Source: Candidatus Falkowbacteria bacterium
GTDB lineage: Bacteria; Patescibacteriota; Patescibacteriia; UBA11705; JABHMO01
DNA: 64,000 nt
NCBI GenBank assembly: GCA_018674305.1
Contig: JABHAL010000015.1
Span: 128,532 to 192,531, forward strand
Reading direction: 5' to 3'
The translations under genes and the position numbers were made by a program. Shown here one piece after another: positions 4,824 through 36,874 of the stretch; position 1 is the stretch's first letter; every line of letters starts with the position of its first letter. The notes below the pieces were generated by a model. That model was not told where the DNA came from, made no database searches, and saw nothing but the letters and a program-made list of their open reading frames with translations.

Positions 4824-5930
4824 CTATTTATCTTTGAACATGTTTTTGATAACGTATCTTGCGTCACAAAAATCTCGTTCCAAAGAAGTATTTTTAGAAA
4901 TCCAAATAACTATCAGGTAATATCCAAGTGTCACTAAAACGAATATTGGTATACCAAAAATAGCCATAAAAAAATTGGGAACCTTCAGATGAGACATCCA
5001 AACTGCCAAATCCGCTATTAATATCCCTATAAAGGTCATTGGGAATATTGAGAACACACACAAAGAACAAAATTTCAACGAACGAATACCTATCCCAGCA
5101 AGAAAAAAAATCATCAATACAATCAAAATAACAAGAAAGCAAAATGCAAACAATAGAGTCGCTTCCTTATTTTTTTCAAAGGCAAAGAAATTAATTTTTG
5201 AAGCAGGCTTAACCTGCGGCTCACTTATTTCACGTGCTATTGGTCGGTAATTGTTGTTTTCCTTCGTTTGTTTAATAATATCTGCAGTTACATCTGAAAG
5301 TTCACCGCCCCAAGGACAATGACCACGCATATTAAAAAAATGAACTCTGGCTTCAGTGTCATTGCAATAGAAAAATATTGCTTTTCCCGTTTTCTGACTT
5401 ATAAAACCATTTGCAACCTGATAAAAATCAATTTCTTGATTATTGTCCATTGCATATCTTTTATTAATTTCAAAGCGTCTGAGTTGGCTATCATTACATC
5501 TAATAGACTGGTCACCAAATTCGTCATAACTGTGCCCTTCATAGACCTTTACGCGCCCACTCAATTTATCGTCAATGCAAAACTTTCGATCTCCAGTAAT
5601 TGGATGAACAATCGTGTTGTAATTAACTGCGTACATTACTAGTGAATGACTGACAAAAATTAAAACGATCAACCCAAAACCGATGTAGCGTCTTTTTTTA
5701 TTCCAGCTCAAAAAGAACTTAAAAATAGTTACCCATAGCCCGATGCCGATAATTAAACCGATCACTTGAGCCAAATAAATATTAAGGCCGTAACCAGAAA
5801 CTTTCACCACGATATATGGGTAAACCATTAAAAAACCAATGAAATCCGCGTACATCACAAGACCAAGGAAAAGAAATACTGCCAAACCAACAAAAAAAAT
5901 ACCCAAAGTTCGCTTTGTCCACTTTAACAT
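4824..5930 (-). CDS. Paralog-family membrane protein (368 aa); closest sister of 3580..4695
   Basis: High identity in N-module. 5' UTR/promoter block (5938-5995) nearly identical to 4703-4760. Confidence 0.7.
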   Translation of the reverse strand: MLKWTKRTLGIFFVGLAVFLFLGLVMYADFIGFLMVYPYIVVKVSGYGLNIYLAQVIGLIIGIGLWVTIFKFFLSWNKKRRYIGFGLIVLIFVSHSLVMYAVNYNTIVHPITGDRKFCIDDKLSGRVKVYEGHSYDEFGDQSIRCNDSQLRRFEINKRYAMDNNQEIDFYQVANGFISQKTGKAIFFYCNDTEARVHFFNMRGHCPWGGELSDVTADIIKQTKENNNYRPIAREISEPQVKPASKINFFAFEKNKEATLLFAFCFLVILIVLMIFFLAGIGIRSLKFCSLCVFSIFPMTFIGILIADLAVWMSHLKVPNFFMAIFGIPIFVLVTLGYYLIVIWISKNTSLERDFCDARYVIKNMFKDK

Positions 5931-5993
5931 GACAAACCTCCGAAATTTTAAAGATCAATCTTTATTCTAAATATTTTAGAACAAGGATTAAAC

Positions 5994-6031
5994 TTGAAAA
6001 TAAATAAGGGCAAGGCGCAAGCACCTTGCCC
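5994..6031 (-). terminator. Intrinsic terminator variant (GGGCAAGGCG-CAAG-CACCTTGCCC)
   Basis: GC hairpin with flanking A-run on plus strand, immediately after small ORF 6038..6292. Confidence 0.5.
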
Positions 6032-6037
6032 TTTGGA

Positions 6038-6292
6038 CTACTTCTTTTTACGTTTTTCCTTCAACTTCTTAACCCACGGATGCCCAGAACTCAAGAAAAT
6101 GCTGAACAATCCGATGGCGATACTCAGGAGAATTCCCGTAACAAACCAAGCCTCCTTTTTGTTAACTTCACGACCTTCGGGGTTTTCCTCAGCATCTTCT
6201 CCCATGATCCAGCCTTTAATAAAGGCAATTCCAAGAAGGAAGAAAAAGATGATAAGCACAACAATCGCAATCAAGATAATTTTTAACCACAT
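6038..6292 (-). CDS. Small 2-TM membrane protein (84 aa) with C-terminal GHPWVKK motif; paralog of 10244..10489
   Basis: Two copies share architecture (TM - acidic loop - TM - HPWVKK - basic tail); both are followed by the GGGCAAGG hairpin. Confidence 0.5.
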   Translation of the reverse strand: MWLKIILIAIVVLIIFFFLLGIAFIKGWIMGEDAEENPEGREVNKKEAWFVTGILLSIAIGLFSIFLSSGHPWVKKLKEKRKKK

Positions 6293-6319: not shown

Positions 6320-7810
6320 TTACTGAAAAGTGTATTCCATATAATGATCATTAGCATCCTTGCCACTGATTGTCACTTCAATCCAACGAAGGTTAGAATT
6401 ACCTCCCTTCAATCCCTTGTAATATGATGTCAAATCGATCATAAATCGTGCATTTTGAGTATGATGCTTCAAATTTGCTTCAAGGTACACTTCTGGTGCC
6501 AATTTCCAAGAGAAAACAATAGGAGTCCTTTGCTTATATTGAGCTGGGGACTCTCCTTTGCTTTTCAACACCCAGGCATTCATTGTTGCATCAGTGTATG
6601 TAACTGAGACACCGTGCTTTTCCTCACCTCTGAAATAAAGCCGGCAATTTGAAGACAGAAAACCGGGCCAATTCCACTCAATATTTCGAAAAACAGGGTA
6701 TGCCACAACATTTCTAGTTTTACTGGCAGCTGGATTATTTTTATTCCAGCCAGCTGTAACAATTTCGTAATGCTTTCTATCTTTTTCTAGTTGGGCTGCT
6801 TTTTTAGCCTTCTCTTTGGCTTTTTTTTCTGCTCTTTTTTTAGCAACCCTTTCTTTTCGTAATTCAGCCTTAGCATCTTCAGCTTTTCTGTTTTCTAGAT
6901 GTACCCTTCGTTTTTCCTGTCGGGCAAATTTATTTCTTTCGGCCTCTAGACTTTTTTCTGCTGAAACCCTTTTTCGTGCTTCTTCTTTTGCTTTTTTCTC
7001 TGCAACCAATCTTTCACGTCGCTCTTTTTCAATCTTTAATTTCAGGTTTTGCTTTTTTTCTTTCTCTAACCTGATTTGTTCATTTTTTTTTTGCAACTTC
7101 TCTCTTTCTTTCCTTACAATTTCACCAGTAATGACCTGAAGCTCGCCTCCCCAGGGACAATACCCAGAGGATGCGTAAAAATGAACCGTTCCTTCAGGAT
7201 CAGTACAGTAGAAAAAAAGTGCCTTTCCCGTGGCTGGACTAACAAATCCAGACTCTACTCTCTCAAGTGTGACTTCGTAATTCTTGGTAGTAGCAAACTG
7301 CTTACCCTTCTCATATTTTTCAATGAGCTCGGGGGAACAACGCTGTGCCTGCTGACCAAACTTATCATAAAGAGCCTGTTCAAAAACCTGAATTTCACCA
7401 GTCAAAGGATTGACTGTGCAAAACTTAGCCATAGCCGGTCCATCAATAGGATGAACCAAGGAGTCCCCTTGAATCAGGAACATTGCCAAGGAATGCAATG
7501 CAAAAAATGCTGCAATGGTGATCATCCCCGCAAGCCGTCGATCTTTCTTCCAGCTAAAGAAAAGCCGGAAAATTGCGTACCACAGAGGTACCGCAACAAC
7601 TATTCCAATTGCCTGGGCCAGATAAGGATTCATTCCGAATCCGGAAATCTTGCTGACCACGTACGGATAAACCATCAAAAAACCAAAAATCGAAGCATAT
7701 TTAACAAGACTGATCAAAATCAGAATTGCCAATGCCACAAAAAACAACCCGAGAAACAGTTTAGCTGTCCTCTTCATAACACACCTCCAATGGTTATTTT
7801 CAACGAACAA
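6320..7810 (-). CDS. Paralog-family membrane protein (496 aa) with K/E-rich coiled-coil insert and a distinct soluble C-terminal domain
   Basis: Conserved N-module (FGFLMVYPY, FFSWKKDRR, HSLAMF, FFYCTD...GYCPWGG), then ~120 aa EKEKK/ERRER low-complexity helix and a non-TM C-terminal domain. Confidence 0.7.
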   Translation of the reverse strand: MFVENNHWRCVMKRTAKLFLGLFFVALAILILISLVKYASIFGFLMVYPYVVSKISGFGMNPYLAQAIGIVVAVPLWYAIFRLFFSWKKDRRLAGMITIAAFFALHSLAMFLIQGDSLVHPIDGPAMAKFCTVNPLTGEIQVFEQALYDKFGQQAQRCSPELIEKYEKGKQFATTKNYEVTLERVESGFVSPATGKALFFYCTDPEGTVHFYASSGYCPWGGELQVITGEIVRKEREKLQKKNEQIRLEKEKKQNLKLKIEKERRERLVAEKKAKEEARKRVSAEKSLEAERNKFARQEKRRVHLENRKAEDAKAELRKERVAKKRAEKKAKEKAKKAAQLEKDRKHYEIVTAGWNKNNPAASKTRNVVAYPVFRNIEWNWPGFLSSNCRLYFRGEEKHGVSVTYTDATMNAWVLKSKGESPAQYKQRTPIVFSWKLAPEVYLEANLKHHTQNARFMIDLTSYYKGLKGGNSNLRWIEVTISGKDANDHYMEYTFQ

Positions 7811-14905: not shown

Positions 14906-15862
14906 CTACTTATCCCAACAAAAATTATTCCCGAAATGGCCAAACTCAGCAGTTTGTTCAAATTGAGGCTTTTTCAACTCTAATAAAGTAATAATCCCTT
15001 TAGGAGTTAAATCATAACCTTGTACATTCTCTTTGCGACCATCAATTTCCACAGTCGCCATTACCGGTTCAGCTACTCCAATTGAATAAGCTAAATGGCA
15101 AATAACTTCTTTGGCATTATTTTTTTGTAAATAATCAACAGCAATTTTTCTGGCCATGTAAGCAGCGGAACGATCGACTTTGGACGGATCCTTGCCTGAA
15201 AATGCACCACCTCCGATAGGAATTCGTGGACCATAGTTATCCACAATCAATTTCCGACCAGTTACACCAGCATCTGCCTCAAATCCTCCTTGTGACCAAT
15301 CACCAGCTGGATTAACATAAATTTTAAGGTTTTCACTTACATTTTTGTCTTTTAACCATTCTTCAACCAGCCCCTTCATTTCTTCTGCTCGAGCATGCTG
15401 AAAGCTGGCCACGACAGTTGAAATTAAATTGTTTTCTAATGTAATTTGAGTTTTGCCATCAGTTTTGTATTTAGAAAATAATACTCGACACAAATCACGT
15501 GAAAGCTTTACCTCCAAAGGAATTAATTCCGGAGTTTCACTGCAAGCATATCCAACCATGATTCCCTGGTCACCAGCACCACCCGGATCAACTCCTCGGG
15601 CAATATCTGGAGATTGCTGAACTAAATTGACACTAACTTGATATTGATCTCCAGCAATTCGTTTAGCAATTTTTTCCGCATCAAAAACCGCACCGGAAGT
15701 AATCTCTCCGGTAATTGTAATAACTCCATGCCCCCCCATTGTCTCTACTGCAACCCGTGAATGTGGGTCTTGCGATAAACAAATATCTAAAATAGCATCG
15801 GAAACACGATCACAAATTTTGTCTGGGTGCATTGGTGAAACTGACTCTGCTGTACGTAACAT
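14906..15862 (-). CDS. metK: S-adenosylmethionine synthetase (compact form, 318 aa)
   Basis: HPDKICDRVSDAILD, GGGAFSGKDPSKVDRSAAY hallmark motifs. Confidence 0.9.
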   Translation of the reverse strand: MLRTAESVSPMHPDKICDRVSDAILDICLSQDPHSRVAVETMGGHGVITITGEITSGAVFDAEKIAKRIAGDQYQVSVNLVQQSPDIARGVDPGGAGDQGIMVGYACSETPELIPLEVKLSRDLCRVLFSKYKTDGKTQITLENNLISTVVASFQHARAEEMKGLVEEWLKDKNVSENLKIYVNPAGDWSQGGFEADAGVTGRKLIVDNYGPRIPIGGGAFSGKDPSKVDRSAAYMARKIAVDYLQKNNAKEVICHLAYSIGVAEPVMATVEIDGRKENVQGYDLTPKGIITLLELKKPQFEQTAEFGHFGNNFCWDK

Positions 15863-16118
15863 AAATTCTTTGGCCGCGATGTAACCAGAAATAGTTTTTG
15901 GTTTTGTTGCAGCTTAATACTTAAATAAAAAATACTCTTTCATCACGAAAAAGTATAATAATTGAATAATTATTTATCTTTCCCGTGCTGGGCTAGAATT
16001 GACACCTTCTTGAATTACCTTCAAGGGTTGTCGACAGGTCATCGGGCTATATCCCTCACTGTACTCTTGATAAATGGTTAAATTGTATATATATAATATT
16101 ACACTAAAATTAATTTTA

Positions 16119-20504: not shown

Positions 20505-20777
20505 CTACCAACCCCTTCTTTTCTTTAATTTCTTGCGTCGATTTTTTCTAGCTTGCTCTCGATAGGATTCCTTAGCTTTTTCCTGTCGAAGAGCTCTAGC
20601 TTCAACCTTGTTTGGCACATGCTCACGTTTGGTTAATTCAGTCTTAATCTCTACAACTGACAACATTCGACCACCTGGTATCGGCGTATGGCCCTTGTGT
20701 CGTTTTGACCTAGCTTTTTCTAAATAATTCAACAAGACTTTTGTAGGTAAATTTGGTAAATCATATGGATTAGTCAT
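20505..20777 (-). CDS. Small basic hypothetical protein (90 aa)
   Basis: ORF; RRKKLKKRRGW basic tail. Confidence 0.4.
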   Translation of the reverse strand: MTNPYDLPNLPTKVLLNYLEKARSKRHKGHTPIPGGRMLSVVEIKTELTKREHVPNKVEARALRQEKAKESYREQARKNRRKKLKKRRGW

Positions 20778-20882: not shown

Positions 20883-20911
20883 TTGACAATATACAACCAA
20901 TAAGCTATACT
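20883..20911 (+). promoter_or_regulatory. Sigma70-like promoter TTGACA-N17-TATACT driving the ncRNA below
   Basis: Consensus -35, 17-nt spacer, near-consensus -10; predicted TSS ~20918. Confidence 0.55.
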
Positions 20912-20917
20912 TTAACC

Positions 20918-21304
20918 TAGGTTAAGAAGTGAAACCTCCGCCACGCGGAGGGGTAACCTAAATTGGTTCCCGACAAACCGATTTAGATTGCTGGTAATAC
21001 CGGAGTGGGTTAGCTCGCCCTCATCATGGCCCTTGACAGCGGTGTTGGTAAATGAATAGCAGTCAAGTCCATTCTACGACTAGCCCTGCTACCAACCGCG
21101 ACCGTCTACAGACTAGGAAATACCTCCGCCAAATTGAATGCGCACAATTTGGTTCCGAATGGATATTGGACAAATATGAAACTGGCGAGAAAATTCATAT
21201 TTGAGAAATATCCAGGTCTAGTCCCTTATTCCGGGGGGTGCGTCAAGCATTTCTTAACCTAAAAGCGCGCCTTGTGCATCATTACGGGGCGCGCTATTTT
21301 TTTT
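20918..21304 (+). ncRNA. Unclassified structured ncRNA (~385 nt) bounded by promoter, closing helix and intrinsic terminator
   Basis: GC-rich island between two minus-strand genes. 5' GGTTAAGAAG (20920-20929) pairs with 3' TTTCTTAACC (21250-21259). Internal hairpins: CCTCCGC/GCGGAGG, CTAAATTGG/CCGATTTAG. Terminator GCGCGCC...GGCGCGC + T8 at 21265-21304. No convincing RNase P P4 or tmRNA UUCGAC/T-arm match. Confidence 0.5.
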
Positions 21305-21356: not shown

Positions 21357-23078
21357 CTAACCAACACTTTTCATATATTTTAAGTCTTCCTTCTTAATCA
21401 TAAATTTACCATCTTTAGCTAGCCTCTTTGCTAGTATTTCATCTTTCTGATCCTCATTAACTAACGACTGAGCAATCGTCTTGGCCTTTTCTCCTATTTC
21501 TGCATCATTTTCATTATTAGCAGCCTCGGTAACTCCCCATAGATGCCAACCTATTTTATTCAGTGTTTTTTGGAAATTATCTTGCAATCCAGCAAGATCC
21601 ACACCCCATTCATTTTTCACCTCACCACGGTCAATTTTTGCTTGAATGACCTCAATTTCATTTTGTTTCAATGCTATTATTTCTTCTAACGCAACAATGT
21701 ATGAATTTGCATCACTATATCCCATTTGTGATTCCCAATGACCCTCATCAGAGGCTAAACGAAAAGTGTGTTTTTTATCTTTTGAAGATAAAGATTGATA
21801 TATTTGCTGAGCATATGACCAAGAATCAAAATTATTTCGTTCAGGTAAATCCAGATTATATATATCACCTTCTAACACATCTTTTATTAATTCATTTTTC
21901 TGACTTTCACTTAATTCAAAATCATTATTGACAATATCCTCTATTTTCATTGGTTTCTTATTGTACTTTACTCTTTTCCTATCAACTTCTTCAAGTTCTT
22001 CATTCACAATTTTTTCAGTCACAACTTCCTCAACCAAAAAATATTCACCTGTCTGAGCATCTCTTATATATACTGGCATGCCCAGGGTTTTGCCTTCTTT
22101 CAATATTTCATCCATCAAATTTTTATTACCATGCTCAGTTAAGGCTGAATTCTCCGCTATTTTAACATCAATATCTGAATCAAAAAACAAAGCTGCAATT
22201 TGTGGTTTTTTTACTAAAATTTCATTATGTCCAGACTCCGATTTATTAATAGCTTGAGAGATTTCTTCTTTAGGATTTTCAGTATTAAATACATTACTTC
22301 GTTCACCTTCAGATACTTGTGAAACACTATCTCTCGCCATTGCTGCCCCAATCTCACCCCCTTTCAATAAAACACCAAAAGAAAAAAAGGATTGATCCTT
22401 GACTTCATTCTTTTGCTTATCAAGCCGTACACTTGCAGTTGACAAATTAGGCTCCATTGCCAATGTTGCATGAAACATATCCTGCCATCTAACCCCACGC
22501 TTCATAACAGAAACCTGTCCCGGAGTAGTCATGCTCAAAAAACTGTGATTTAATACAGCATTATGTTCTTTACATACCTCCATAACATCCTTGGACTTTT
22601 TCTCACCTTCCCAAGTCTCCAGAGCCTCAGCTTGATCTTTATAAAATTCACTTATCAAACTTTCAGCTTTTTCAAGTTCGACTTTACTGTCAGCCTCTTT
22701 TTGCAAATCTTTATACATTTGCCACAACCCCTCAAACTCTCTTTGTAAATCTTCAACTTTTCTCCTATCCCCTTGGATCTCATTCTGCAAAGCCCTAATC
22801 TCAAATAAATTAAATAATTTAGCAAGTGTTCTTTGCTGTTTTGACTCTAATTCACTCTCCAATTCTTTCAACCTATCGATTACTTCCTTAAACTCCAATT
22901 GTTTTTGTTTAATTTTCTCCTGTAATCGTACTGTTTTTTCATTGATATCTGCTTGGCGTTCAGAAAACTGAGCTTCCAGCGCAGCTTGTTGCGCCTCCAC
23001 TTCTAATTTTTCCTCGGGATTTTTTTCCTGAACAAAATTTCTAAGCTTTTGATTATTTACTGGTGATTCTTTTCTCAT
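21357..23078 (-). CDS. Coiled-coil protein (573 aa), function unknown
   Basis: N-terminal ~200 aa heptad-rich E/K/Q region; C-terminal globular part without recognised motifs. Confidence 0.5.
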   Translation of the reverse strand: MRKESPVNNQKLRNFVQEKNPEEKLEVEAQQAALEAQFSERQADINEKTVRLQEKIKQKQLEFKEVIDRLKELESELESKQQRTLAKLFNLFEIRALQNEIQGDRRKVEDLQREFEGLWQMYKDLQKEADSKVELEKAESLISEFYKDQAEALETWEGEKKSKDVMEVCKEHNAVLNHSFLSMTTPGQVSVMKRGVRWQDMFHATLAMEPNLSTASVRLDKQKNEVKDQSFFSFGVLLKGGEIGAAMARDSVSQVSEGERSNVFNTENPKEEISQAINKSESGHNEILVKKPQIAALFFDSDIDVKIAENSALTEHGNKNLMDEILKEGKTLGMPVYIRDAQTGEYFLVEEVVTEKIVNEELEEVDRKRVKYNKKPMKIEDIVNNDFELSESQKNELIKDVLEGDIYNLDLPERNNFDSWSYAQQIYQSLSSKDKKHTFRLASDEGHWESQMGYSDANSYIVALEEIIALKQNEIEVIQAKIDRGEVKNEWGVDLAGLQDNFQKTLNKIGWHLWGVTEAANNENDAEIGEKAKTIAQSLVNEDQKDEILAKRLAKDGKFMIKKEDLKYMKSVG

Positions 23079-26875: not shown

Positions 26876-27379
26876 CTAAACTTCATTATTTCGATCACAA
26901 AACCAAGCTTTTGGGTTGTTACAAATATAACAACGAGCATGTTCCAGTTCGGATTGGTCTCGTAACACGCGGTCGTAAAATGATTTTTGCCAATTAAAAT
27001 CAAAACAATTTAGACCATATCGAATTTGTTTGGTACAAACATTTTTGAAGGAATTTATGATTTTGGAAATTAATCCATAATTATTTCGTGTAGGGATCGG
27101 GCAATGCCCGTTCCCTACGTTTTTTATATATATTATACCGTGCATATGATTCGGCATTACAATATATTTATCCAATGAAACATTTTCATAATACCGTGGA
27201 ATTAATTTCCAAAATTCATTTACCACATCACCACAAACATTCAAAATCATTTTTTCATCAACAACATCACCAAACCAATTTATTCTATTCTTCGTACAAA
27301 TCGTTAAATAATAAAAACCGGGCAATGAATAATCAAACGCCCGACAACGGTTTAATTTTCGTTCTGGACCATTGTACAT
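26876..27379 (-). mobile_element. IS200/IS605-family HuH tyrosine transposase, REP-associated (RAYT)-like
   Basis: HuH motif PNHMHGIIYI, catalytic Tyr region WQKSFYDRVLRD, C-terminal ...YICNNPKAW typical of RAYT/TnpA-REP. Confidence 0.65.
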
Positions 27380-35257: not shown

Positions 35258-36051
35258 AAGCCGTCATTTCAAATTCAAGGTAAGAAGAGCGAAAGTTCTC
35301 TGGCACTTAGCTAAAATTGAAACTCTGAATATTTACGCCGCGTGTTGGTGTATTGCAAATAAAAAAAACGTCAACGACCTACCAAAAGAAATAAAATAAC
35401 ATATTCAGATTGGCACTGTCGCAAGATTTACAAAACATCTACCGACACTGAATATCGAAATCGCTGGTGAACTGAGATGGAAATACGAGATATCCAGCAA
35501 CAACGATATTCCTGAAGAAATTCTTTGGGCCCTTGGTTACGAACGCTATAACAACACGGCGTTGAGAGCAAGAGGGATTAGAAAAATCAAGCCAAAACAG
35601 CCAGTAAAGGTTTCTTCAGTGAAAGAAGTCTTAGACGCTGGACAAATCCCAACGGTGGACGATTTCTGATACACCACCTAGCAATATGACAAGGGTTTTT
35701 AAAACTAAAGAAGACAAACGAATTCGAGTGAAAGGGATCCGTCGAATTGAGCGGTCCATTAGAACAACATAAAGACTACTAGTGAATCTACTGGTGGTCT
35801 TTTTTATTTTGATTAAAACATTAATTAAGAGTCTAAACTTATCCTTCGGAGAGTTACTTTTATAACCTGCCTCGACTGACGTCGGTCAAGGCGGCCGCCC
35901 CTCCAGCTCCCCCAGAAAGTAAGGGAATCCTTCCCTTACCATCCCTGGTTCGAGTCCTCCTACTTCGCACAAGAGTTTTTATTGGCTTGCCATGAACCCG
36001 AAGAATCATCTAAATAAAAACCACCCACCTTGTAAAAAGATGAGTGGTTCA

Positions 36052-36378
36052 TGGCTCTGCGAGTCGGACTCGAACCGACGACCTACTGGTTACACTTATC
36101 CAAGGATTTCTCCAGGGCGTGGACTATATCATCACCATAGCAAATGCTTTAGGCGCGAGGCGCTTCCACCTTGATGTAAAAATCAAAGTGTACTCCTAAA
36201 AAGGATAGTCTCTGAACCTTCCCCAACTAATGTTAGGGCTTGGCTGCGGATTAGCATATCACAATTGACTTAGCCTTCCCGACAATTCACCTCGTTATTC
36301 ACCCCAATGTTTCCAAAGGGGGCTGCGTTATATTTTTGTGTACACAGCCAGTTGCTCTACCAACTGAGCTATCGCAGA
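36052..36378 (-). tRNA. tRNA-Asn(GUU) (alternative reading Thr-UGU) interrupted in the anticodon loop by a 251-nt group I intron (36093..36343); exons 36344..36378 (nt 1-35) and 36052..36092 (nt 36-76 incl. CCA)
   Basis: Exons give a perfect cloverleaf: acceptor TCTGCGA/TCGCAGA, D-arm GCTC-AGTTGGTA-GAGC, anticodon stem ACTGG/CCAGT with loop CUGU|UAA, T-arm GTCGG-TTCGAGT-CCGAC, G73, CCA. Intron has Q AATCCGCAGC (exact), R GTTCAGAGACTA (exact), S ATGATATAGTCC, P AATTGTCGGGAA in canonical order. P1 pairs GGCUGU (exon) with GCAGCC (IGS) giving U.G at the splice site; omega-G precedes 3' exon. Confidence 0.8.
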
Positions 36379-36508
36379 ATAATGTTTTTACCAACTGCGT
36401 GTCCGCCGAAGCTTTAGCGTAGGCGGGAGCTATCGCAGAATAATTCTGTAGTAAAATACTATCATATTATTTCAAAATATACAAGAGCCAAATATCAACA
36501 AATATTCG

Positions 36509-36874
36509 CTACCGGTAACAACAGTCCGTACAGTTCGGACCAAAGAACAAACCCTCCGGAGTGAAGAATTCCTTTTTTTCTTCTTCTGTTCCTTTATAAT
36601 ATTTACCAAATAATATTTTGCAGATCGCTTTGCTTTTTACAATACAGGTATAGTCATAACCATCGGACCATCCTTTCACTTGTCTATCCATCACTCCACC
36701 ACCAAGCACACACAAGGGCTCTAAATAATTTTTTCCGAGAGTTACAAACTGCAAAGTCGGCGATCCAGAAACAATATCTCCGCCACCAAGTTCATTATAA
36801 AGCGGGAAATATAAAATAATTAAAACAGAAATTATTATTCCAATGATAATTAGATGGAGCTTTCTCTTTTCCAT
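36509..36874 (-). CDS. Small membrane-anchored hypothetical protein (121 aa)
   Basis: N-terminal TM; C-terminal Cys pairs. Confidence 0.4.
   Translation of the reverse strand: MEKRKLHLIIIGIIISVLIILYFPLYNELGGGDIVSGSPTLQFVTLGKNYLEPLCVLGGGVMDRQVKGWSDGYDYTCIVKSKAICKILFGKYYKGTEEEKKEFFTPEGLFFGPNCTDCCYR

Follow-up and report, generated by a model that had tools for sequence, protein, structure and literature searches.

It is seldom that a class of large, intricately folded RNA is newly found in bacteria; past examples are RNase P, the group I and group II introns, OLE, ROOL, GOLLD and raiA, which proved to be catalysts or unexpected RNA-only assemblies. The large 'ornate' bacterial non-coding RNAs (ncRNAs) OLE, ROOL and GOLLD are RNA-only homo-oligomers (PMC12286853), and natural homo-oligomers of RNA repeatedly make use of palindromic pairing and of kissing loops (PMC12990946; PMC12286853). 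The raiA motif RNA has been reported in > 2700 species (PMC12968392), and for Candidate Phyla Radiation bacteria (CPR; Patescibacteria) diverged RNase P RNAs that score under the Rfam cut-offs are known (PMC8172020). Here we describe an RNA gene at positions 20883-21304 of a 64-kb stretch of a contig (JABHAL010000015.1) of an uncultured, ultra-small marine Candidatus Falkowbacteria bacterium, this stretch being hereafter called the window, to which all unprefixed coordinates refer. We consider it likely that this locus is a stand-alone gene for a highly structured ncRNA of ~340 nt, the founding member of an undescribed, narrowly distributed family in Falkowbacteria-like CPR bacteria. The original prediction had proposed a ~385-nt structured ncRNA at this place, possibly a divergent housekeeping RNA, possibly a large ncRNA specific to the lineage. 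Four lineages are compared in the following, namely the window and the related contig loci L010, L020 and L022.

On the plus strand, the gene begins with a sigma-70-type promoter (20883-20911) made up of the -35 box TTGACA (20883-20888), a 17-nt spacer and the -10 box TATACT (20906-20911). With a score of 11/12 consensus positions it is the top one of eight promoter-like sites that a promoter scan reports for the region, and transcription is expected to start at A20919 or G20920, the latter of which is counted as nt 1 of the RNA. At the other end an intrinsic terminator (21264-21304, plus strand) consists of a 13-bp stem (21264-21295, 8 GC pairs) with a 6-nt loop, followed by T8. The GC content amounts to 0.45-0.49 over 20900-21299 compared to about 0.30-0.37 in the flanks, and the minimum free energy of 20920-21304 is -145.6 kcal/mol, whereas dinucleotide-shuffled versions give -106.6 ± 5.7 (z = -6.8, with 0/100 equalling it), the opposite strand folding less well (z = -4.2). 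The RNA is located between two minus-strand open reading frames (ORFs; 20505-20777 and 21357-23078), overlaps neither of them and is single-copy within the window. In L010, L020 and L022 a promoter of the same build (TTGACA, 17-nt spacer, TAnnnT -10 box) is kept upstream of the closing helix P1, and a hairpin with a U-run, whose sequence differs from that of the window terminator, lies 3' of P1. Promoter, closing helix and terminator are thus kept in 4/4 lineages, and the conserved promoter and terminator give the locus the look of a gene for a discrete, strongly expressed stable RNA.

The RNA is closed by the 12-bp helix P1, in which GGUUAAGAAGUG (20920-20931, nt 1-12) pairs with CAUUUCUUAACC (21248-21259, nt 329-340). 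P1 is continuous with the 6-bp helix P2, formed by CUUGAC (21032-21037, nt 113-118) and GUCAAG (21242-21247, nt 323-328), the 3' strands of both helices being contiguous (21242-21259). A 5' insertion between P1 and P2 carries the hairpin P1a, the optional hairpin P1b and the P1c loop, and the arms P3, multi-hairpin P4 and P5 join at a junction inside P2. Within the insertion, P1a (20935-20951, nt 16-32) is a hairpin of 7 bp (CCUCCGC-CAC-GCGGAGG, loop CAC) with three compensatory pairs in three sequences, and its counterpart in L022 reads GACUUCU-CACA-AGGAGUC. We also considered its CCUCC stretch as an anti-Shine-Dalgarno decoy and rejected this reading, as the stretch is a covarying stem that reads CCUUGC in L020. 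P1b (20952-20992, nt 33-73), a long variable hairpin with four compensatory pairs, is absent from the L022 homologue. P1c (20993-21031, nt 74-76 / 110-112) is a 3-bp helix, varying among the lineages as GGU/GCC, AGC/GCU and GGG/CCC, which closes a 33-nt loop; the first bases of this loop, AAUACC (20996-21001), are invariant in 4/4 lineages and its last bases are CAUG (21025-21028), AAUACC...CAUG(A) in L022 having been placed by covariance-model alignment.

Inside P2, which has two compensatory pairs and reads CUCGGC/GCCGAG in L020 and GGUCAG/CUGACC in L022, the P3 domain (21039-21099, nt 120-130 / 172-180) comprises an outer stem (21039-21049 / 21091-21099), a bulge, the inner stem P3a (AGCAG/CUGCU) and a variable tip. 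The stem of P3 is retained in L020 as GCGAUUUGAU/AUCAAAUCGC, and the 8-nt bulge AAAUGAAU (21050-21057) is invariant in the three close lineages and unrecognisable in L022. In the P4 domain (21100-21218, nt 181-184 / 296-299) a closing helix GACC/GGUC surrounds the mini-hairpin P4a (21104-21113), the hairpin P4c (21128-21153) and the long hairpin P4b/P4d (21160-21214) with its GGA/AGA internal loop; five compensatory pairs fall into P4d, two into P4c, and one each into P4b and P4. The P4c loop AAUGCGCA (21137-21144) contains the palindrome UGCGCA (21139-21144), which is found in the window and L010 and is replaced by UGCA in L020 and L022, so that the loop was dropped as a fully conserved sequence and the UGCA core alone is retained. 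P5 (21222-21238, nt 303-319) is the hairpin UCCCUU-AUUCC-GGGGGG, in which 100% of the cells are paired and the changes are one-sided only. Its loop AUUCC is complementary to GGAGU (21002-21006) of the P1c loop, and a pseudoknot between the two is possible; neither partner varies among the three close lineages, whose pairing L022 does not convincingly retain.

The four sequences span a wide range of divergence. The RNA is 100% identical in nine metagenomic contigs that bear the adjacent 90-aa ORF (20505-20777), and the L010 RNA, located via an 83%-identical relative of this ORF, is 88% identical. In L020 the RNA (5790-6118, minus strand) was reached through LemA homologues; it is roughly 65-70% identical and gives an nhmmer E value of 2e-20. 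L022 carries an unannotated 280-nt unit (6926-7206) upstream of mgsA, in the same place and orientation as in L020, which is invisible to nhmmer. This unit is matched end to end by a covariance model (R1) for which the three closer sequences were used with P1b deleted (model positions 1-298, 21.5 bits, E = 1.8e-5), the next-best match scoring 8 bits. The match is specific, since a search of a further 157 kb of related loci with the filters off gave nothing at E < 0.05. In P1, P1a, P1c and P2 of L022 the sequence is almost wholly different and the lengths and positions are the same.

Evidence that selection acts on the fold comes from covariation. In a structure-blind MAFFT alignment of the three closer sequences (window, L010, L020; alignment A5), 91.9% of the cells are standard pairs, and 20 pairs are changed on both sides yet remain paired, compared to 8.9 ± 2.1 in column shuffles, none of which (0/500) reaches 20. 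When the partners are slid by 1-3 columns, the number of such pairs falls to 1-6. RNAalifold independently finds most of the P1-P5 helices. A hand-made table of all four lineages has 280 of 284 cells paired and 40 of 83 pairs compensatory, among them nine of the twelve pairs of P1; a model-made alignment (A7) split the matches and was left out of the counting. On the plus strand the wobble pairs, which are many, are G-U, and none of the four unpaired cells of the table is A-C, which identifies the plus strand as the RNA. These compensatory substitutions in homologues establish that the fold is maintained by selection and that the locus encodes a structured ncRNA, a compact multi-helix RNA under purifying selection. 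A protein-coding reading was rejected, since the window and L010 differ by a 2-nt indel that falls within the longest frames, and the substitutions are compensatory in pattern. Hence, the features that the original prediction had listed, i.e. the TTGACA-N17-TATACT promoter, the 5' end paired with a segment 330 nt downstream, several internal hairpins, the strong terminator with T8 and the GC-rich island in the intergenic gap of two minus-strand genes, are all present, the internal hairpins being kept in diverged homologues with compensatory substitutions. The call of a structured ncRNA stands as well; its length does not, as the mature body measures about 340 nt and the figure of ~385 nt counts the terminator.

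Apart from the helices, several sequence blocks are invariant in the window, L010 and L020, namely AAUACCGGAGU, UAAAUGAAU(A/G)GCAGUC, ACCGUCUA, AAUGGAUAU, GAUAUCCAGG and UAUUCCGGGGG. Common to 4/4 lineages are AAUACC and CAUG(A) in the P1c loop, the UGCA core of the P4c loop, a basal GGAU/AUCC in P4b together with the GGA internal loop, and the C-rich/G-rich P5.

To known families the RNA shows no relation in our searches. Rfam was searched by cmscan with 4227 families, at the gathering thresholds and then at E <= 10 with lax filters. At the gathering thresholds the window yields a group I intron and an S-adenosylmethionine (SAM) riboswitch, both elsewhere, and none at the RNA locus; at E <= 10 there is noise on the terminator only, and the RNA body alone and the L020 and L022 homologues likewise return noise only. 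Neither the OLE, ROOL, GOLLD and raiA models nor the HEARO, group II and retron-type models among these families match. ARAGORN reports no tRNA or transfer-messenger RNA (tmRNA) in the window and no tmRNA in the related loci. Moreover, we found no CPR-specific structured RNA of comparable size in Rfam or in the literature searched. The original prediction had seen no convincing match to RNase P or tmRNA, and this agrees with the negative cmscan search at E <= 10 in three diverged members and with ARAGORN. Of the checks it had proposed, the Rfam search could have assigned the RNA to an ordinary family and gave no match at either setting in these three members; the covariation analysis with homologous loci yielded the 20 compensatory pairs of A5; and conservation, which might have been lacking, extends to promoter, closing helix, internal helices and terminator. 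The lineage-specific part of its proposal is upheld. The housekeeping part is not, as the RNase P RNA of a related CPR bacterium was found at 90.8 bits (see below).

In 4/4 lineages the RNA is found no more than about 4 kb upstream of a conserved lemA-htpX cluster and is encoded on the other strand from the genes beside it. These neighbours differ: in the window the RNA is flanked by a 573-aa ORF and the 90-aa ORF, in L010 by a CHASE2 cyclase gene and a 90-aa ORF, in L020 by a 1677-aa ORF and mgsA, and in L022 by a 73-aa ORF and mgsA, the last-named gene being absent throughout the 64-kb window. On the RNA's own strand no gene follows. Pfam, PHROG and PADLOC give no sign of a nuclease, reverse transcriptase, transposase, phage or defence function in the neighbouring proteins, and, these neighbours also differing among the lineages, it is unlikely that the RNA serves an adjacent enzyme as guide or scaffold. 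The RNA would act in trans, as an abundant and stable molecule, because no gene follows on its strand and its neighbours differ among the lineages.

The distribution found so far is narrow. Synteny walks via LemA and MgsA homologues place the RNA in four of about 90 LemA neighbourhoods, i.e. the window, L010, L020 and L022. The DNA pattern ACCGGAGT-N30-55-AAATGAATRGCAG matches genome contigs 14 times, roughly as often as chance would give, and of these matches the one in the L020 contig alone is real; the pattern thereby places the RNA in 1 of 185,579 species genomes, and it has 0 matches in viral contigs. Nothing similar to the RNA was found in a phage collection. Degenerate-seed scans, in which stop-free frames of the RNA were translated as pseudo-proteins, gave 0 matches in genome and metagenome contigs, collections that evidently do not contain the source species. 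A strict structural descriptor recovered the known members only, a first descriptor having been far too permissive. Two kinds of candidate homologue were rejected: a weak nhmmer match in L044 lies inside a coding sequence, and the GC-rich gaps of other loci are tRNAs, a SAM riboswitch or repeats. All these counts are lower bounds, one member having already escaped sequence search, and the family may be much wider in Patescibacteria than sequence searches show.

How such an RNA might work can be outlined from its conserved unpaired nucleotides, which would serve as interaction surfaces. We picture a scaffold that self-associates by loop-loop (kissing or palindromic) pairing and/or binds a partner, which would be similar to OLE, ROOL and GOLLD. 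Self-association is favoured here because two of the motifs common to the four lineages are self-complementary, one being UGCA/UGCGCA of the P4c loop and the other CAUG of the P1c loop; we nevertheless put this step forward tentatively, as a minority possibility.

Several points weigh against this interpretation as a whole. The transcript is a predicted one, from promoter and terminator. The covariation statistics rest on few sequences, four lineages being known, and the four-lineage table was hand-aligned to the structure, which biases it towards that structure. The middle of L022 (the P3 region) is not confidently alignable, and the 8-nt invariant bulge is missing there. The RNA is absent from most of the related loci examined, which argues against a universal essential role. 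As to self-association, the palindromic tetramers might be places where a protein or a tertiary contact is made, instead of dimer interfaces; the chance of two palindromic motifs among about four conserved loop motifs is, by our estimate, only about 0.02. The narrow distribution so far and a gene context that gives no functional clue also limit the significance of the finding.

Among the other explanations, the one that fares best takes the RNA as a ribozyme or ligand-binding RNA of new activity that would act as a monomer. The multi-junction fold, the invariant unpaired AAUACC, AAAUGAAU and GGA/AGA, and the possible pseudoknot GGAGU/AUUCC speak for it, since such features typify catalytic or ligand-binding cores. 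However, no feature indicates a specific chemistry, and L022 retains neither the 8-nt bulge nor the pseudoknot partners; we regard this explanation as improbable, if still the one to be taken most seriously after a self-associating scaffold.

Less probable by half is that the RNA belongs to a mobile or RNA-guided system, as an omega RNA (IscB/TnpB), an IS110 bridge RNA, a retron ncRNA or a group II intron remnant. Its varying positions in a variable chromosome stretch, its patchy occurrence and a weak, sub-threshold Y1 transposase match 5.6 kb away (26876-27379) would suit such an origin. Yet in 4/4 contexts the adjacent genes include no nuclease, reverse transcriptase or transposase, Rfam's models of HEARO, group II and retron type do not match, and the window has a single copy of the RNA; a variable guide-like tail is lacking, the RNA ending with P1 and the terminator. 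The neighbours are without PHROG or PADLOC matches, and viral contigs and phage records gave no match.

Slightly less credible still is a cis-acting element, i.e. a leader, riboswitch or antisense regulator of a flanking gene. In the window and L010 the RNA does stand back-to-back with the 90-aa ORF's promoter region, and in L020 and L022 with that of mgsA. A strong terminator follows right after P1, however, and the next gene is convergent, so that none lies downstream on the RNA strand; the RNA does not overlap the flanking ORFs, and these genes differ among the lineages, with no mgsA in the 64-kb window. The lack of a downstream gene on the RNA strand and the differing neighbours therefore exclude a leader or riboswitch.

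The host's RNase P RNA, too diverged for Rfam as reported for some CPR bacteria (PMC8172020), is a still poorer candidate, and we regard it as very unlikely indeed. RNase P type A (RF00010) and the 340-nt RNA are alike in length, in having a strong promoter and in the second helix that stacks on a long closing P1, and the size of ~340 nt, the closing helix and the promoter would suit a housekeeping RNA. Nevertheless, RF00010 and RF00011 do not match the window, L020 or L022 RNAs at E <= 10, whereas a positive control searched in the same mode (L102:13715-14092, plus strand) scores 90.8 bits with RF00010 (E = 3e-28). This type-A RNase P RNA of a related CPR bacterium falls below the gathering score of 100 and would hence be missed by standard annotation; it was picked by a regular expression for CR-I and CR-V, which does not find the 340-nt RNA. 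Type-A RNase P has, unlike the 340-nt RNA, a conserved P4, CR-I and CR-V: free covariation is seen here in the helix that adjoins P1 on its 3' strand, unlike in the conserved P4, and the P4 pseudoknot motifs GGAAAGUCC (5') and ACAGAA...GGCUUA (3', immediately before P1's 3' strand) are not conserved in the four sequences. The P1/P2 topology is mirrored, the 3' strands being continuous in the 340-nt RNA and the 5' strands in RNase P, and the RNA family is missing from most relatives. The block GGUAAUACCGG agrees with the RNase P motif GGAAAGUCCGG of E. coli at 8/11 positions; this resemblance to CR-I was discarded, as a match of 8/11 is expected about once by chance (an estimate) and part of it falls into covarying stems.

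A tmRNA, signal recognition particle (SRP) RNA, 6S RNA or detached rRNA fragment is just as implausible: although the transcription unit resembles that of a stable RNA, ARAGORN is negative in the window and the loci, there is no tRNA-like 3' end or CCA, the terminator following directly after P1, and the SRP, 6S and small- and large-subunit rRNA models do not match at E <= 10. The stretch GGUAAUAC(C)GGAG resembles the 530 loop of 16S rRNA; the likeness is superficial, because its GGU is a covarying stem (AGC in L020), and about 0.3 chance matches are estimated.

Some observations on the surrounding genes stand apart from these readings. The 90-aa ORF (20505-20777, minus strand) encodes a protein that has a very basic C-terminus (RKNRRKKLKKRRGW) and no Pfam match and that forms no more than three 90%-identity clusters among 5.8 billion; the ORF is present on many metagenomic contigs and in the metagenome-assembled genome GCA_018670895.1, and NCBI lists its product under 'Candidatus Falkowbacteria bacterium', a CPR/Patescibacteria lineage. 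It is divergent from the RNA in two lineages (window and L010) and occurs in L014 with no RNA nearby. On the other side, the coiled-coil-rich product of the 573-aa ORF (21357-23078, minus strand) has no Pfam, PHROG or PADLOC match; this ORF sits between the cyclase gene and the RNA in the window genome and is absent from L010. The transposase-like match belongs to a 167-aa ORF (26876-27379, minus strand) and is of the IS200-like Y1 type, with E = 4.5e-4, below the Pfam cutoff; homologous 168-aa ORFs are found at the same position in L010, and the gene is probably domesticated or REP-associated (repetitive extragenic palindromic) and not an active element.

Two further RNA elements of the window were identified by Rfam. 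The group I intron (36100-36353, minus strand; flanks about 35950-36520) scores 80.5 bits and lies in a 1.25-kb ORF-free gap. With nearly any boundaries chosen for its in-silico removal, ARAGORN detects a tRNA that spans the junction; the intron thus interrupts a tRNA gene in the anticodon loop, the identity of the tRNA depending on the exact splice site, and the split explains why ARAGORN reports no tRNA in the window. Interruption of tRNA by a group I intron has been mentioned for CPR genomes (PMC8172020). The SAM (S-box) riboswitch (15971-16076, minus strand; 68.3 bits) is located upstream of a 318-aa ORF (14906-15862), whose homologue in syntenic loci is S-adenosylmethionine synthetase, and the same arrangement is seen in L022 (riboswitch 15671-15772).

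As for the related loci, the L020 contig is identical with L034 (CAYSUN010000028.1), titled 'uncultured Gammaproteobacteria bacterium'. Its LemA (84%) and MgsA (77%) are closest to CPR proteins and its gene order is that of Falkowbacteria-like loci, which suggests that the record is probably mis-binned or mislabelled. The same contig has a ~110-nt unit (L020:13560-13690, plus strand) with a TATAAT box and a clean terminator (AGCGGAAAGUCCUAGUACUUUCCGCU and a U-run), which may be a small RNA. In L039 (10574-11022), and likewise in L045, two ~190-nt direct repeats lie between lemA and mgsA; each consists of a GC-rich hairpin-like segment followed by an AT-rich tail, and they are unrelated to the 340-nt RNA. 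Short GC-rich repeat clusters beside lemA in L061 (718-1460) and L087 (1180-1726), e.g. AACCACCCCUAACCCCUCCUUG...AAUGAGGGG, look like REP elements or miniature inverted-repeat transposable elements.

Returning to the stand-alone RNA gene, its retention is suggestive. CPR genomes are streamlined to roughly 1 Mb, and that such a genome has retained an RNA of 340 nt, with 12-13 helices under selection and a near-consensus promoter, suggests a useful role. It is conceivable, though we would call it speculative, that the gene encodes a CPR-specific RNA of new function, either an RNA-only homo-oligomeric assembly or a ribozyme or ribonucleoprotein core that replaces a function lost in reduced genomes, perhaps wider in Patescibacteria. 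The four natural variants provide a synthesisable target for structural work as well as a seed alignment for a sensitive search of Patescibacteria.

Compared to described systems, the 340-nt RNA resembles the raiA motif RNA in being independently transcribed, structured, a few hundred nucleotides long and abundant-looking; it differs in its architecture, in the lack of an Rfam match and in being known from four lineages only. With OLE, ROOL and GOLLD it shares the stand-alone gene, the multi-helix fold, the many conserved unpaired nucleotides and the patchy phylogeny. Those RNAs are larger, roughly 580-800 nt as against about 340 nt here, their Rfam models match neither its sequence nor its structure, and the 340-nt RNA, unlike them, occurs in CPR bacteria and has no phage association. 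The loop of the dimerisation initiation site of human immunodeficiency virus type 1 (HIV-1) reads AA + GCGCGC + A. The 8-nt P4c loop, AA + UGCGCA, likewise has two purines followed by a 6-nt palindrome, although P4c is part of a bacterial ncRNA and the palindrome is shortened to 4 nt (UGCA) in L020 and L022. The self-complementary loop motifs are of the kind that mediates RNA-RNA quaternary contacts, oligomerisation of the 340-nt RNA being inferred only. By homology the RNA family is new; in kind it is one more of the few large orphan ncRNAs of bacteria.

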